DNA of 64,000 nt from Vicinamibacteria bacterium (GCA_963668695.2 CAXXLQ010000004.1:3200001-3264000), one strand, 5' to 3'; counted from the stretch's first letter, positions 15,405 to 63,998 are shown. Notes: generated by a model not told the origin, from the sequence alone. Made by a program: numbers and translations.

Positions 15405-15966
15405 TAACAGCCGGTGGTGAAACCCACGTGAGCGCCGAGGCTGGCCAGTTCTCCCGGTGGGGGCGAGGCGCTCGGCTGACAAGGCGCGTGAGGGAGGAAT
15501 ACCGGGTGTATTCCGACCGAAACGCAACGCAGAACGCAGCGAAGCGGAGTGGTTCGGCCGGGATGGATCGCCGGTCGAACGCCGCGTGGGTTTTGCCACA
15601 GGCTGTTAGCAGCCTGTGGTGGAACCCGGGTGAGCGCCGAGAGCGGCCAGTTCTCCCGGTGGGGGCGAGGCGCCCGGCTGACAAGGCGCGTGAGGAAGGA
15701 ATACCGAGTGTATTTCGACCGAAACGCAACGCAGAGCGCCGCAAAGCGGCGCGGTGACCTAGCAGCCGGTGGTGGACAAAGTGGCGTGAGTGCCGAGGCT
15801 GGCCAGTTCTCCCGGTGGGGGCGAGGCGCCCGGCTGACAAGGCGCGTGAGGGAGGAATACCGGGTGTATTTCGACCGAAACGCAACGCAGACCGGAGCGA
15901 AGCGGAGTGGTTCAGCCGGGATGGATCGCCGGGCGAACGCCGCCTGGGTTTCACCACAGGCTGTTA
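15405..15966. mobile_element. MITE-like repeat cluster (full + left half + full)
   Basis: Units start CAGCC at 15408, 15610 and 15763 and end GGCTG at 15605 and 15963. Each carries the tag. The right TA is part of the oxidoreductase stop codon. Confidence 0.85.
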
Positions 15967-18443
15967 AACCCCCGCCGCTCCCAACTCCTCCAGCACGCGC
16001 TCCGGCCGCAGCGGCAGTCTTCGCATACGCACTCCCGTCGCGTCATGGATTGCGTTCGCGACGGCCGCGGGAACTGGCCGGTGCGAGGGCTCACCCGCTC
16101 CGTAGGGGCGCAGGTCCGGGCGGTCGGGGTTCGGGTCACCGTTGACCATCACGACATCGATGCGCTCGGGCGCGTCCATGTGCGTGAGGGTCGGGTGCGT
16201 GCGCCAGTCAACGCTGGTGACCTTCTCGCCGTCGAACCGGACCTCCTCGTACAGCGTCCGGCTGATCCCGTGCAGGAGGTTCCCCTGGATGGTGCCCTCC
16301 AGGCTGTTCGGGTTGATCACCAGGCCGCAGTCGTGGGCGCACACCATCCGCCGGACCCGCACCCGCCCGGTTTCGCGGTCGACCTCGACTTCGGCGATCA
16401 CGGCGATCACGGTGCGGGCGCGGTAGGCGTACGCGATGCCCCGCCCGGTGAGAAAGCGCCCGCTGCCTACCGTCCCGGGTGACGGCCGCACCTCCCATCC
16501 GTACGCCTCGGCGGCCGCTTCGACCACCGCGATCGATCGAGCCCGGCGGAGAGCCTCGTCGTCATCGGTTGCGCCCCGCAGGAGGCGCAGCCGGAACTCG
16601 ACCGGATCCGCGTTCGCGGCCGTGGCCAGCTCGTCCACGAACGACTCCCCGGCGAACGTCGTCTGCGGGCCGTTGGGGTCGCGCAGGTTCCCGGTGCGGA
16701 GCGGCGTCTCGAAGGCCAGCGGGAAGCGGATCGCCCGAGTCTCCTGGCGCCGGTTCGGGATGTGATACATGTCGTCCGGCCCGCGGGCACCCCCAGGCGA
16801 CGGCCGCTCGGGCCGGAACCCCATCAGTTGCGCGATGAGCACGGTCCGGGCCTGGTTGTATCCGAGGTGCGCGTAGTTGGCGATCCGGCCCTGATAGTCC
16901 AGCGCGACCACGTTGCCGTCCGCGTCGAGCCCTCCCCGGAGGTCGATTGCGAAGGCGGGACCCTTGGTGTCCCACGCCGTCTCCTCGTGCCTCATCCACT
17001 GCACGCGAACGGGGCGGCCCAGCTCCTTGGCCAGGTACGCGGCCTCAAAGCCCGCGTCGTCCGCCGCCGTGCGCCCGTAGAGCTGCGGCCCCTCCATCCA
17101 GATCACCCGCACCTGCTCCGGCGGCATGCCCAGGAACTCGGCGATCCCGGTCCGGTGGCTGTACGGCTTCATGTCGTTGGTGTAGATCGTCATCTGGCCG
17201 TCCGAGGGATCGGCCAGGGCGTGGGCGGGCCCGATCGCGGTGTGTCCGTGGAAGGGGATGTCGTATGCGGCTTCGACGACGGTCGCGGCGCTCGCCAGCG
17301 CCCCATCGGGGTCTCCCTGCACCTGCGCCGCCGCCCGTCCACCCGAGCCCGGCACTCCCTCCGCGCTCCGCATGTAGGCGAAGAGGTCTTCCGATGCCGG
17401 GAAGGGCGCCGTGGCGGGCTTCTCCCATGCGAGGACAAGACGTTCCGCAGCCTCGATCGCCTGCTCCTCGCGCTCGCACACGACCGCGACGTAGTTGCCC
17501 TTGCTTACGACCCGGATGAGGCCGGGCACATCGCGCACCGATGACTCGTCGATGCCCGTCAGCGTCGCGCCCGCGAAGGGCGGGCGCACGTTCCGGGCGT
17601 GAACCATCCCCGGGAGGTTGACGTCGACGGCCCACTCGAGCGATGCGTCGACTTTGGCGGGGATGTCGTAGCGCGGAATCGACTGGCCGACAAGCTTCAG
17701 GTCCTGCACCGGCTTGATGCTCGCGACGCCGGTGGTCGAGTTGATGTTGGCGCCCGCCAGCGCGACATCGAAGCGCCGCCCGCCGATCAGCTCGCCGTAG
17801 GTGACCGTCCGCGAGGGATCGTCATGCAGCGAGATCACGCCTTCGCTCACTCGAAGCTCCTCCACGGGCACGCCGAAGCGCTCCGACGCCATCTCCAGCA
17901 GCACCCGCCTGGCCTCCGCCGCGATCCGGCGTCCGACCATGGCGTCGCGCTCGATCGCGTCCGAGCCGCCCGAGCCGCCCTGGTCCACCGTCAGGTCGGT
18001 GCGTCCCATGACAACCGTGGCCCTGTCGAAGGCGATGTCGAGCTCGTCGCACATCATCTGCTGGGTGGCGGTCCCGGTCCCCTGGCCGCCATCGGTCTTG
18101 CCGACGTAGAAGGTCGCGCTGCCATCCTCGTGCACGACCAGCCACGAGTCGAGTTGGAGGAAGTCGGGATCCGGATAGGCACCGGGCTCCGAAGGCCTGG
18201 ACCCAACGCCCTGGCGGGCCGCCCCAATCGCTCCCCAGCCGCGCTCATTCCGCTCAGGCCGAAGACGAACAATCCCGAGGTCTTGAGGAAGTCGCGCCGG
18301 GAAGTGGTGCCGCCCCAGCGCTCGACAGCGCGGTCGATCGAGTTCGCGACCTGCCAGTCGCCGGTCGCGGGCGCCTTGCCCACGGGGGCATCGGGTTCGC
18401 CGCTGGCCAGATCCCGCCCTCTTTGCGCGTCGCGCCCGCTCAT
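15964..18443 (-). CDS. Xanthine dehydrogenase-family molybdopterin-binding subunit (isoquinoline 1-oxidoreductase beta-like), Tat-exported, apparent frameshift near 18180-18250
   Basis: ATG at 18443 overlaps the small-subunit stop. SRRDFLK Tat motif lies in one frame; GKTDGGQGT, HDCGLVINP and GAGEP...AVANAIHDATGVR lie in another. Confidence 0.85.
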
Positions 18444-18919
18444 CGGTCTGCCTCCGCTTGGGCCATCGCAACCGCTGCGCGCTTCACCGCGGACTGGATC
18501 CGGAAGTAGGTCATGCAGCGGCAGAGAATCGGGTTCATGCCCTCCCGGATCTCGTCGTCGGTCGGGTTCGGGGTGGTGCGTAGCAGTGCTGCGGCCGTGA
18601 GGATCTGCCCGTTCTGGCAGAACCCGCACTGCGGCACCTGCTCATCGATCCAGGCCTGCTGGACGGGATGCAGTTGCCCGTCCTCGGGCAGTCCCTCCAG
18701 GGTCGTAATCTCGCCGTTGCTACGCGAAACCGGCAGGATGCACGAGCGGATCGGGCGCCCGTCCATCAGCACCGTGCACGTCCCGCACTGGGCAAGGCCG
18801 CAGCCGAAGCGCGGTCCCCGCAACCCGAGATCGTTCCGCAGGACGTACAGGAGCGGCGTCGACGGATCGACGTCGAGCGTACGGGTCTCGCCGTTGACCC
18901 TGAGCGTGGTCTCTCTCAT
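18440..18919 (-). CDS. (2Fe-2S)-binding small subunit (CoxS/IorA-like)
   Basis: GCGLAQCGTC, QCGFCQNG and LCRC motifs. Confidence 0.95.
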   Translation of the reverse strand: MRETTLRVNGETRTLDVDPSTPLLYVLRNDLGLRGPRFGCGLAQCGTCTVLMDGRPIRSCILPVSRSNGEITTLEGLPEDGQLHPVQQAWIDEQVPQCGFCQNGQILTAAALLRTTPNPTDDEIREGMNPILCRCMTYFRIQSAVKRAAVAMAQAEADR

Positions 18920-19062
18920 CGGTGCATCCCCCCTCCGCGCGGAAGATCCTCGGTGCAGCAACCGGCCGCTTCATGGCTCCACTCGCTCAGAGCCTGCGAA
19001 CCCCGCCAAGTCCCTCGATCAAGAAGATTGAGATGGCCCGGCACCGATCCGATACTACGCTC

Positions 19063-62900: not shown

Positions 62901-63880
62901 CCTACGTCCGCCCGCAGGAGACGGGCACGCGGAGCGACGTGCGCTGGGCGGCGCTCACCGACGACGCGGGGACGGGACTCCTGGTCGTCGGGTTGCCCCA
63001 CCTGTCGTTTTCCGCGCTGCCCTACCGGATCTCCGACCTCGACGGCGGCGAGACGAAGAGCCGGACCCACTGGGCCGAACTCACCCCCCGCGAAGAGATC
63101 ACGCTGGCGGTGGACTTCCGCCAGACCGGAGTCGGCGGCGACGATTCCTGGGGCGCGGTCACGCACCGGGAATACACGCTCTGGCCCCAGAACCTGGAGT
63201 ACCGGTTCCTCATGCGCCCGCTCGGTCCCGGCGACGACCCGGGGGTGCTGGCGCGGCTCGTCCTCCCCGACGAGGCCGCCGAGACGGAGGTGTACGCCCG
63301 CTCCCTCGATCTCCACGACTTCGCCGAGCGGAACCTGGCGGCGCATCTCGCCCGGGGGGCGACTGCGCAGGTGGATCCGCCCCAGTCGTCCCCCTATTCG
63401 GCGGCCGGGGACGCCGGGCTCACCGACGGCATCCGGGGTTCGGTGGACCGCCGCGGCGGGCACTGGCAGGGCTACCGGGCGGACGAGGTCACGGCCCGGC
63501 TGGACCTCGGGCCGGCGCAGCCGGTCTGGTCGGTGAAGCTGTCCTTCCTCCAGCACCCGGGTTCCGGGGTGTACTTCCCCCGGCGAGTGGAGGTCGCGAC
63601 GAGCCTCGACGGGCAGTCCTGGTCCGAGCCGGTGGCGCGTGAGGTCGCGGATCCGGCGGACGACGCCGGAGACGACGTTCCGGCGGGCGCCGCGGAAGAG
63701 GTGCCGGCGGGCGGACGGCAGCGGGTCACCGTCCCGCTCGCCGGCGACGAGGCGCGCTTCCTGCGGGTCCGGATCACCGGCCTCGGCGAGGTCCCCGCCC
63801 CCTGGCCCACGGGTCCCGACGGCGCCCGGCGGGAGGGAGAGACCGCCTGGATCTACCTGGACGAGATCATCGTCCGGTAG
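59975..63880 (+). CDS. GH2 beta-galactosidase (LacZ-like), secreted, with C-terminal discoidin-like domain
   Basis: [66 protein letters not shown] and DEI end. Confidence 0.93.
60077..60150 (+). repeat. 4 x 18-bp tandem repeat encoding PPPWQD
   Basis: CCCTGGCAGGATCC core repeated at 18-bp spacing. Confidence 0.9.
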
Positions 63881-63889
63881 ACAGGGACC

Positions 63890-63998
63890 GCCGGTCTCGG
63901 GACCGGCATCGTGCATCGCTGACAGAGAAAAAGCGCGGGGACGGCTTGGAACGCCGACCTCTGGCCAGTTCTCCCGGTGGGGGCCGGCACCGCGGCCC
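63890..63998. repeat. REP-like palindromes, the second carrying the tag
   Basis: GCCGGTCTCGGGACCGGC at 63890. 63948-63998 matches the reverse complement of the 52.5-kb REP, with the tag at 63963-63984. Confidence 0.75.

Follow-up and report, generated by a model that had tools for sequence, protein, structure and literature searches.

A 20-nt non-palindromic repeat of Vicinamibacteria very probably propagates on its own and coincides with the target site of an IS110-family element

We analyzed a 64-kb stretch of DNA from a Vicinamibacteria genome (G000:C4:3200001-3264000; the window) in which a short sequence, here called the tag, recurs inside two unrelated kinds of repeats: a miniature inverted-repeat transposable element (MITE) and hairpins resembling repetitive extragenic palindromes (REPs). 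The genome, G000, is a metagenome-type assembly of 4.1 Mb in 4 contigs with 67% GC, a completeness of 91.7%, and a contamination of 9.3%. The tag has an 18-nt core, CCAGTTCTCCCGGTGGGG, and its usual unit is the core followed by GC, ~20 nt in all. The core has 13 exact matches in the window, nine on the plus and four on the minus strand, compared to none in 100 shuffled sequences. The copies occupy four positions of the MITE (A, A′, B, and C) and the loops of two REP-like hairpins. One core abuts its neighbor directly, inverted pairs of tags lie ~50 nt apart, and a degenerate, shortened tag (CCAGTCTCCCGG) near 29264 is truncated. Tag-free MITE copies are present at 5149, 19066/19197, 31061, and 35852, and tag-free REP units at 38517 and 52506. 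A first-pass annotation of the window had described the tag in both orientations, the abutting and degenerate copies, the tag-free repeats, and at least four MITE positions and two REP copies. Reading of the sequence confirmed these features, and the positions given were right apart from a shift of 2 to 3 nt, because flanking G/C bases had been counted. A search of the window against Rfam gave no match at the gathering threshold.

In the entire genome the core occurs 1,288 times without mismatch (648 forward, 640 reverse) and 1,679 times with up to three mismatches, 77% of the copies being exact, and the density is ~1 tag per 3 kb. Such a count had been proposed in the first-pass annotation, and it placed the tag in 489 distinct 10+12-nt contexts. 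Over these contexts the surroundings have the consensus (G)(G/C)-core-G-C, with G (84%) and then G or C (64% and 35%) before the core and G (87%) and then C (79%) after it. When tags on the same strand and no more than 30 nt apart were grouped, 1,396 clusters were obtained (1,213 singles, 134 doubles, 47 triples, one cluster of four, and one of five units), in which the start-to-start spacing was 18 nt in 151 cases and 25 nt in 84 cases. The tag is non-palindromic and by inspection has at most a 3-bp CCC/GGG stem; its ends, CCAG.. and ..GGGGGC, are unrelated, i.e., there are no terminal inverted repeats. No orientation bias was found between replichores delimited by skew turning points, either for tags in REP loops (25+/17− and 31+/23−) or for those in other contexts (50/43 and 63/54). 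A total of 43 exact copies lie on the duplicate contig C1 (144 kb), which contains stretches identical to the chromosome C4, for example 600 nt around a tag in an AcrB-family gene described below; copies of a larger element, also described below, at C1:7604 and C4:413626 belong to another such stretch. C1 may be a haplotig or a mis-binned duplicate, which fits the contamination estimate of 9.3%.

The exact 18-mer was present in 22 of the 28 genomes of the family, covering five of the seven genera, and missing from the other six, whereas the reversed sequence, used as a control, was found 0 times in all 28. Next to the 1,288 copies of G000, 631 were counted in G004, 564 in G001, 525 in G008, 220 in G031, and between 1 and 90 in the remaining positive genomes. 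In other genera the exact 18-mer is located at different positions of diverged MITEs and in other repeats. A scan of the genomes of 185,579 species returned, among the matches listed, almost only metagenome-assembled genomes of Acidobacteriota/Vicinamibacteria, together with single occurrences in four unrelated records. In G031, a genome of another genus (C1:61001-63500, local ~1090-1200), half a REP-like hairpin plus the tag makes up a tandem unit of 44 nt with at least three repeats, which indicates that tags can also be amplified as parts of minisatellites.

The main host is a ~180-nt MITE with ~23-nt inverted ends and flanks of the TAA/TTAA/CTAG type, of which G000 contains ~650 copies of the left module. 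When context classes were assigned by simple patterns, 323 of the 1,396 clusters were located at MITE site C, 313 at site B, 143 at site A′, 126 at site A, and 50 at site D, while in 87 clusters the segment from A to A′ was missing between the tags. A further 85 clusters lie in the loops of REP-like hairpins, in either arm, and the remaining 269 in other contexts (225 distinct flank pairs). Comparison of filled and empty sites revealed how the tag is joined to its hosts. Among 502 matches to site B, 246 had the empty 8-nt form (AATACCGG and variants, ..GGA-ATA-CCG..) and 246 the filled 26-nt form, in which ATA is always replaced by GCCCCCACCGGGAGAACTGGC (..GGA-GCCCCCACCGGGAGAACTGGC-CCG..); zero empty copies with flanks of the filled type were found among these matches. 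At site C and in REP tails, GGC/GT/TC becomes GGC-core-GC-TC, and at site A′, GAGGC/GC/CCGG becomes GAGGC-core(-core)-G[T/C]-CCGG. At site A and in REP loops one base is exchanged with a net gain of 19 nt, and at site D the core is followed by GG.

The junction rule is that a constant ~20-mer, the core and usually GC, is introduced while 1 to 3 target bases are lost, with a net gain of 18 or 19 nt and no target duplication. The junctions described in the first-pass annotation for single repeats of the window hence hold genome-wide, as does its view of a separate unit that enters unrelated repeats without two conventional ends and replaces host bases instead of duplicating a target. Arrays with an 18-nt period would be explained by the same rule if the site of entry for a 20-mer lay between GGGG and GC of a resident tag. 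Where tags share their orientation, the intervening host segment has often been lost and the tags are fused (A to A′, C to B, C to A-reverse); such tags appear to serve as points of deletion or recombination through which the inside of the MITE is remodeled. The features of the window are compiled in Table 1.

Table 1. Tag copies and host repeats in the window, with the start of each exact core
Feature	Coordinates	Strand	Exact core at	Remarks
Tag (core + GC), MITE site A (..GGCTGG/tag/GAGGCG..)	15445..15464	+	15445	
Tag, MITE site A, second unit of MITE array	15647..15666	+	15647	
Tag, MITE site A, third unit of MITE array	15803..15822	+	15803	
Two abutting tag units (18-nt period) + GC, MITE site A′ (..CGAGGC/U-U-GC/CCGG..)	29088..29125	+	29088, 29106	
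Tag, MITE site B (ATA replaced)	29153..29172	-	29155	Inverted partner of the array at 29088
Degenerate, internally shortened tag, site A	29264..29278	+		
Tag, site A′, then GT	29284..29303	+	29284	
Tag, site B	29331..29350	-	29333	
Tag, site A′	29451..29470	+	29451	
Tag, site B	29498..29517	-	29500	
Tag, MITE site C (..CGTCGA/tag/GCCGCG.., AC replaced)	29702..29721	-	29704	
Tag in REP-like hairpin loop	41350..41369	+	41350	Net +19 vs REP at 38517
Tag in second REP-like hairpin loop (CCGACCTCTGG/tag/CGGCACC)	63965..63984	+	63965	Same filled site in the relative G001
Host: ~180-nt TA/TTAA-flanked MITE array	15396..15965	.		
Host: MITE array with 8 tags	29040..29750	.		Entire array missing at orthologous G004 site
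Tag-free MITE	5147..5335	+		G004 orthologue with 3 tags (A′, B, D); site empty in G001
Tag-free MITE, empty reference copy	31059..31241	+		
Truncated non-coding IS110-derived element (contains the REP at 52506)	52470..52588	-		Abuts degenerate tag half GCAGTT

The host repeats themselves turn over rapidly. The MITE has been mobile recently: only 27 nt are found in G004 at the site orthologous to the array at 29040-29750, and where the window reads GGGTAA, the MITE at 5147, and TTAAGGGG, G001 has GGGTGAAGGGG. Around the tagged REP at 41318 (window 41200-41400), G004 and G001 carry short direct repeats of the GGGTCAGCC(C/G) type instead, and at ~95% genic identity intergenic sequence turns over very fast. 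At 38470-38600 two REPs are present in G000 and none in G004, while G001 has five to six tandem REP-containing units of ~100 nt, one of them tagged; REP-like units can therefore expand locally.

Several lines of evidence argue that the tag propagates independently of its hosts. Its 18 columns are 99.5% identical to the consensus at site B (n = 316) and 99.8% at site C (n = 322), whereas the 40 host columns on each side are 77 to 89% identical at these sites. Tags had been selected at up to three mismatches, which sets an identity floor of 83%, far below the values observed. A variant of the tag, CCAGTCCTCCCGGTGGGG, with a T-to-C exchange at position 6, has 149 copies outside C1 and is present in at least six context classes (81 as second array unit, 40 at site A, 9 in REP loops, 3 at site B, 2 at site C, and 14 elsewhere). 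Tag variants are accordingly heritable, and the occurrence of this one across site classes indicates that tags are copied from tags.

Presence and absence of the tag at orthologous sites, a check that the first-pass annotation had recommended, was followed in the relatives G004 and G001, which are syntenic with the window at 90 to 97% identity. The MITE at 5147-5335 was found in three states: in G001 the site is empty, in G000 it contains the MITE without tags, and in G004 it contains the same MITE with three tags at A′, B, and D, all with standard junctions. The G004 copy retains the private variants of the G000 copy. For a broader comparison, 1.28 Mb of G004, a third of the genome, was aligned to G000 (389 high-scoring segment pairs of at least 500 nt, 0.99 Mb, mean identity 91.5%), and all tags between anchors were compared by MAFFT. 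Of 273 tag arrays in G004, 70 were shared, 22 were absent from G000 with clean flanks, 53 had no host repeat in G000, 56 were ambiguous, and 72 had no or a bad anchor; the corresponding numbers for the 1,480 arrays of G000 were 63, 29, 141, 72, and 1,175, anchors being available for 321 arrays. This gave 51 cleanly aligned sites polymorphic for the tag, ~30 of which were judged to be one-to-one beyond doubt by reading of the alignments. Mismatches were not more frequent close to polymorphic tags (50/912 or 0.055 at a distance of 4-12 nt vs 213/2,856 or 0.075 at 16-45 nt), and no conversion tracts from diverged paralogues were seen at the polymorphic G000/G004 sites beyond 1 to 4 junction bases. 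For 22 of the 51 polymorphic tags a second one was located within 400 nt, showing that changes cluster within one repeat. Contigs from four public runs break at every MITE and hence carry no information on tag polymorphism within populations.

The tag has also entered unique DNA. In 71 clusters each flank was present in no more than two copies; most of these still are REP-like hairpins, a few are not. The clearest case is the tag at C4:394435, which lies inside an open reading frame (ORF) for a 1,051-aa protein of the AcrB/AcrD/AcrF family (ACR_tran, E value 6.3e-241, one continuous match). Here GCCCCCACCGGGAGAACTGG has taken the place of CG (..GAGCCCG-CG-CGGGAT.. in G008 vs ..GAGCCCG-GCCCCCACCGGGAGAACTGG-CGGGAT..), which adds six codons and leaves the frame open, and the protein reads ..GGEP-GPHRENW-RDAA.. 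in G000 compared to ..GGEP-V-RDAA.. in G004. An orthologue was found in all 16 genomes of the genus, and the additional 18 nt only in G000 and G001, which are 99% identical in this region. The AcrB tag is a 20-mer that replaced 2 bases in unique coding DNA, and the filled site is the derived state. The statement of the first-pass annotation that no copy lies in coding DNA is correct for the window, but not for the genome because of this in-frame copy. Tags at the DUF819, Metallophos, and DPP-IV loci were also considered, but they are situated at or before the likely start codons and are not claimed as coding insertions.

These data can be weighed against the alternative that every host repeat acquired the tag on one or a few occasions, all later spread being due to transposition of the MITEs and REPs and to gene conversion between paralogues. 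Such passive spread would fit the finding that junctions are identical throughout each site class, with ATA or GC..C in 246 and 246 copies of site B and no intermediates, and that single tags at A′ carry GT and double ones GC, which looks like sub-lineages. It would also fit the association between the fill states of A/A′ and B within the same MITE (92/103/38/146, odds ratio ~3.4) and the fact that at site D a few flanking bases change together with the tag (two of 51 aligned cases). What it leaves unexplained is the unique coding insertion, which is polarized by 14 empty orthologues, along with the tags in unique hairpins and the 489 contexts; the same three observations counter the idea, raised in the first-pass annotation, of a single ancestral position multiplied by host-repeat copying only. 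Also at odds with it are the resident MITE that differs by 3 tags between genomes while its private variants are kept, the lack of raised mismatch beside polymorphic tags, the far greater uniformity of tags than of hosts, and the location of tags at other positions of diverged MITEs in other genera. As the sole explanation passive spread is largely refuted, and we assign it a very low probability. An artefact of assembly, adapters, or polishing can be given practically no weight. Such an error could be suspected because the assembly is of the metagenome type, is contaminated to 9.3%, and has one contig, C1, in which chromosome stretches are duplicated. The same tag is, however, present in 21 other genome assemblies, the same site is filled in G001, tag letters were found in loose contig ends from runs of two studies (X1, X5), and one tag stands in frame within an intact gene. 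The tag is mobile, as seen from gain and loss at orthologous sites and from the polarized gain in the AcrB-family gene, and we consider it very probable that it is an independently propagating tiny module.

Counts of half-tag k-mers led to a larger element. The right half alone was found at chance level (~100 occurrences vs ~76 expected by estimate) and the left half in slight excess. Among the right-half k-mers outside tags were 12 copies of a longer end, ..GACCCGATCATGAGGGTTTC-TCCCGGTGGGGGC, that abut host sites of the tag, and a matching left end, CCAGTT-GCTGTGAAAATGCAG.., had ~13 real copies among 18 matches. The complete elements in G000 are non-coding and range from 147 to ~300 nt; those of G008, G001, and G004 have 310 to 473 nt, and a single larger one reaches 1,059 nt and has REP units in tandem inside it (G008:C1:3942501-3945000, local 725-1783; ~7 tandem copies of a REP-containing unit of ~115 nt). 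No credible ORF was detected in the non-coding element of 150 to 400 nt, and Rfam searches gave no meaningful match to it or to the full insertion sequence (IS) described below. Thirteen non-coding copies of G008, G001, and G004, retrieved with probes that included the tag halves, had these halves on their outside and were situated in REP loops or at one of the MITE sites A, B, and C. The outer flanks often belong to two different MITE sites, which implies that the MITE segment between two tags was lost. In G008 at least 41 right ends are present; left and right ends paired at a distance of 1-5 kb were not recognized there by eye among the matches listed.

Full-length copies were located through IS110 genes that adjoin right-end-like sequence. 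One gene of the IS110 family was found in G000, 10 in G008, 11 in G004, 5 in G001, 3 in G031, and 0 in G026; four of them (two in G008 and one each in G001 and G004) lie 500-700 nt from right-end-like sequence. One locus of G008 consists, on the IS strand, of a MITE site-B flank, (a)CCCCCACCGGGAG, AA, a ~400-nt non-coding copy, AA, a full copy of ~1.75 kb, AA, CTGG, and a MITE site-C flank. The full copy comprises ~330 nt of non-coding DNA between the left end and the start codon, an ORF of 436 aa, and ~175 nt; the encoded protein matches DEDD_Tnp_IS110 (2.6e-22) and Transposase_20 (4.3e-21). The copies in G001 and G004 begin with GCCC[C/G]CACCGGGAG-AA-.., the left flank being GGGAG-AA, and the G001 copy ends with ..ACACAGG-AA-CTGG; the right junction was read in G001 and G008, not in G004. 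Seen on the tag strand, the copies sit at CCAG-TT/.../TT-CTCCC with the core TT on both sides. As two copies are joined by AA alone, the element ends at the AA core, and the tag halves belong to the target and not to the element. On the IS strand the tag, GCCCCCACCGGGAG-AA-CTGG, is the uninterrupted target, with a left arm of 14 nt, the core AA, and a right arm of 4 nt, as read from the sequence of these junctions. The proposal in the first-pass annotation to look for copies next to IS110 genes or at the ends of a larger element proved decisive, since tag halves flank the non-coding element and, in relatives, a full IS110 element. Its statement that the window contains no candidate enzyme was right in that no IS110 gene lies within it; the IS110 family is linked to the tag elsewhere, and a truncated IS110-derived fragment is present in the window itself (minus strand, Table 1).

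The element has the DEDD and Transposase_20 domains, the same core at both junctions, no inverted repeats, a fixed position of insertion, and a long non-coding 5′ end, in agreement with the IS110 family. According to PMC11208160, IS110 elements insert sequence-specifically into repeats, have the core dinucleotide at both junctions, and encode a bridge RNA in a long non-coding end. A 2026 preprint gives only 4 bp for the native right target guide of IS621. At the same place of the non-coding end, CACAGGAA in G001 and CACAGCAA in G008 each agree with the right end plus core of their own copy. The reverse complement of core plus right arm, CCAGTT, occurs in the non-coding end of G008, where G001 and G004 read CCAGAT. 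From these matches a bridge RNA is predicted in the ~330-nt non-coding end, in which a left-arm guide was not recognized. Whether bare or carrying the IS, tags are found at the same MITE and REP positions and have the same outer junctions. We are highly confident that the tag is the target site of an IS110-family element, and the preference of the IS for the tag is strong, though not absolute. The only IS110 gene of G000 (C4:482399) belongs to another element (G000:C4:482090-483880, 428-aa frame) with unrelated ends. Its host is a REP-like hairpin (GCCGACC/../CGGCGTTCC), with the insertion in the loop, and hairpins of this family are entered by tags as well. Relatives of this element number 7 to 8 copies in G004 and G008.

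The relation between tag and element could also be read in the opposite direction, the tag being an excision scar or solo-end remnant formed by the joined termini of the larger element, a possibility contained in the first-pass annotation. It would agree with the fact that the tag equals the 6 nt preceding an element of 150-1,059 nt joined to the 14 nt that follow it, with the presence of the larger element at the same host sites and with the same outer junctions, and with the existence of a single 19-nt form, CCAGTTTCTCCCGGTGGGG. Yet the two head-to-tail copies are joined by AA only, without tag letters between them, so that the IS110 element is bounded by a 2-nt core inside the tag and the tag represents the intact target. 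Derivatives between 20 and ~109 nt were not found (2 matches were examined, none convincing), the tag variant is inherited across site classes, and G026 has tags without IS110. Excision of IS110 elements restores the target, as stated in PMC11208160. We judge an origin as a scar to be very improbable.

A different alternative is that the tag is a functional motif, e.g., a protein-binding or DNA-uptake-type sequence, kept exact by selection or drive. The 18-mer is exact across 5 genera while its hosts diverge, it is found about once per 3 kb with equal numbers on both strands (648 vs 640), inverted pairs are frequent, and short patches are present or absent at orthologous sites, as could be expected for such a motif. 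New copies arise, however, by insertion of the whole unit and not by point mutation toward the motif, nearly all copies lie inside selfish repeats, and the guide requirement of IS110 already explains the exactness needed for that IS. A function of this kind as the cause of the repeat is unlikely in our view.

The best overall explanation, which we favor on balance, is a tiny mobile module that at the same time serves as a landing pad for IS110. In this lineage of marine and sponge-associated Vicinamibacteria (Acidobacteriota), a module of the 18-nt core, usually with GC, would spread on its own, new tags being copied from existing ones so that sequence variants are inherited. The same ~20-mer would be written into GC-rich sites with loss of 1-3 target bases; these would be several fixed positions of the MITE, REP-like hairpins in either arm, unique hairpins, and in rare cases genes. 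The arrays with 18-nt period would result from insertion at the 3′ end of a resident tag, tags in direct orientation would mediate deletions inside MITEs, and full-length and non-coding IS copies would enter the tags exactly at the AA core.

We propose a process that acts in trans, is non-conservative, and makes copies of a unit whose ends are defined. As to what writes the tag, our tentative best guess is a function tied to the IS110/bridge-RNA machinery that reads it, because the mobile unit coincides with the sequence that this system reads and because tags carrying the IS share the host positions and outer junctions of bare tags. Template switching during replication or repair at structured GC-rich sites is somewhat less probable, and the same holds for a wholly unrecognized enzyme. 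Lower still is the probability of a two-tier system in which an IS110/bridge-recombinase lineage co-propagates with its 20-nt target and seeds its own landing pads, directly or indirectly, into hairpin repeats and occasionally into genes. A conservative recombination via circles of 18 or 20 nt with GG, GC, or AA as core was considered and failed to reproduce the junctions, since the prefix and suffix common to filled and empty alleles are too short and the host loses 1-3 bases. If a circle were opened at AA, the inserted tag would by this reasoning be permuted.

A number of observations weigh against a mobile module linked to IS110. Conservative recombination at a shared core, as just described, cannot give the observed junctions. 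Profile searches of G000 yielded no enzyme for the tag itself: in this genome there were 0 matches to the reverse transcriptase profile PF00078 (RVT_1) and 0 to the Y1/RAYT (REP-associated tyrosine transposase) profile PF01797 (Y1_Tnp; control positive in 6 of 14 genomes), none to serine recombinases (Resolvase) or to Y2_Tnp (IS91 Y2; control likewise silent), the TnpB zinc ribbon stayed below the cut-off, and the sole match to PF01541, expected for a small GIY-YIG (Ssn-type) nuclease, lay in a 664-aa open frame of UvrC size. With G000 ~92% complete, the writers suggested in the first-pass annotation, a reverse transcriptase or an HUH/RAYT nuclease, thus find no support. G000 is richest in tags and nevertheless lacks a full-length copy of the IS that targets them, its sole IS110 gene having different ends, and G026 carries 36 tags with no IS110 match. 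A probe inside the IS end abutted CCAGTT in 8 of 19 matches in G000 and in 13 of 17 in the analyzed part of G004; the remainder includes chance matches and copies beside ..GTT whose 4-mer is another one. Over the distinct contexts some variation is seen in the two bases that follow the core (G 87%, C 79%). Empty sites resemble the tag or the IS target no more than shuffled sequence does, with mean local scores over 40 sites of 5.50 in the same orientation, 4.88 in the opposite one, and 5.19 after shuffling. Of the 51 polymorphic sites, ~20 lie in MITE arrays, where paralogues were possibly mis-paired, and the direction of these polymorphisms is unpolarized, the AcrB case alone being polarized.

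The tag is among the smallest mobile-looking DNA units known. It is also the second case of very small mobile repeats, from a phylogenetically distant group and with much fuller documentation, which includes clean alleles in the filled and the empty state, the rule for the junctions, and a polarized in-frame gain in a gene. To our knowledge, this class has been described once, in Nostoc in 2008, and never explained. The tag gives the first tie of such a unit to a defined machinery, as it corresponds letter for letter to the target of an IS110 (bridge-RNA) element; the origin of IS110 target repeats becomes experimentally approachable in this way, and with the tag a natural landing pad of 20 nt is at hand for bridge recombinases. 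It also explains the changeable insides of the abundant MITEs in sponge-associated and marine Acidobacteria. If IS110 does seed its own targets, a transposon would create the sites that it later occupies, and the pads could carry the IS to new loci.

The closest precedent are the small dispersed repeats SDR4, SDR5, and SDR6 of Nostoc punctiforme and relatives, which Elhai et al. reportedly described in 2008 as highly iterated non-coding units of ~20-27 nt that fold as a small hairpin. They are said to occur in many contexts, inside other repeats and each other, with insertion seen by comparison of orthologues and the mover left unidentified. This precedent makes the statement of the first-pass annotation that no named system behaves like the tag too strong. 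The tag resembles these SDRs in being very short, highly iterated, and present in many contexts including other repeats and itself; it differs from them in belonging to another phylum, forming no hairpin, replacing 1-3 target bases, and being a landing site for IS110. A 2018 paper reports no SDR-like repeat outside the Nostocaceae. Neither strand of the tag was found in the searchable literature, a search that does not extend to the supplements of IS110 papers, which are possible target catalogues, and a literature search on Acidobacteria, sponges, and MITEs gave nothing on the tag among the matches listed.

Other short repeats share single properties with the tag. The bacterial interspersed mosaic elements (BIMEs) of enterobacteria and the BOX elements of the pneumococcus are modular, the number and order of their internal modules being variable. 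In appearance the tagged MITEs resemble BIME or BOX mosaics, but here one module was seen to enter unrelated hosts and coding sequence, so that the mosaicism can be traced to a mobile cause. Rickettsia palindromic elements (RPEs) are palindromic, have 100-150 nt, and are inserted in frame into protein-coding genes. The tag in the AcrB-family gene is similar in that a short repeat lies in frame without destroying the gene; in contrast to RPEs, coding insertion is exceptional for the tag, with one solid case. Like MITEs, REPINs (pairs of REPs that form a hairpin), and the palindrome-associated transposable elements (PATEs) of the IS200/IS605 type, the tag is non-autonomous, intergenic, and present in high copy number; unlike these, it has no terminal inverted repeats, target duplication, or hairpin, no strand bias between replichores, and a host genome without a RAYT/Y1 match. 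The tag is hence not a MITE, REP/REPIN, PATE, or Ssn motif, and its properties are those of an IS110 target repeat. With IS621, which targets REPs, and ISPpu10, which targets stem-loops, the system has in common that an IS110-family element enters a short multicopy sequence at a single fixed position and is bordered by a 2-nt core at either end. The target of ISPpu10 is reported to be a conserved intergenic stem-loop sequence with a GC-rich extension. The tag differs from the targets of both elements, as it is not a palindromic REP but a non-palindromic 20-nt unit which has itself entered REPs, MITEs, and a gene, with AA rather than CT as the core and a bridge RNA that is predicted here. New here are the non-palindromic tag, the base-replacing junctions, and the finding that a self-spreading unit is identical to an IS110 target.

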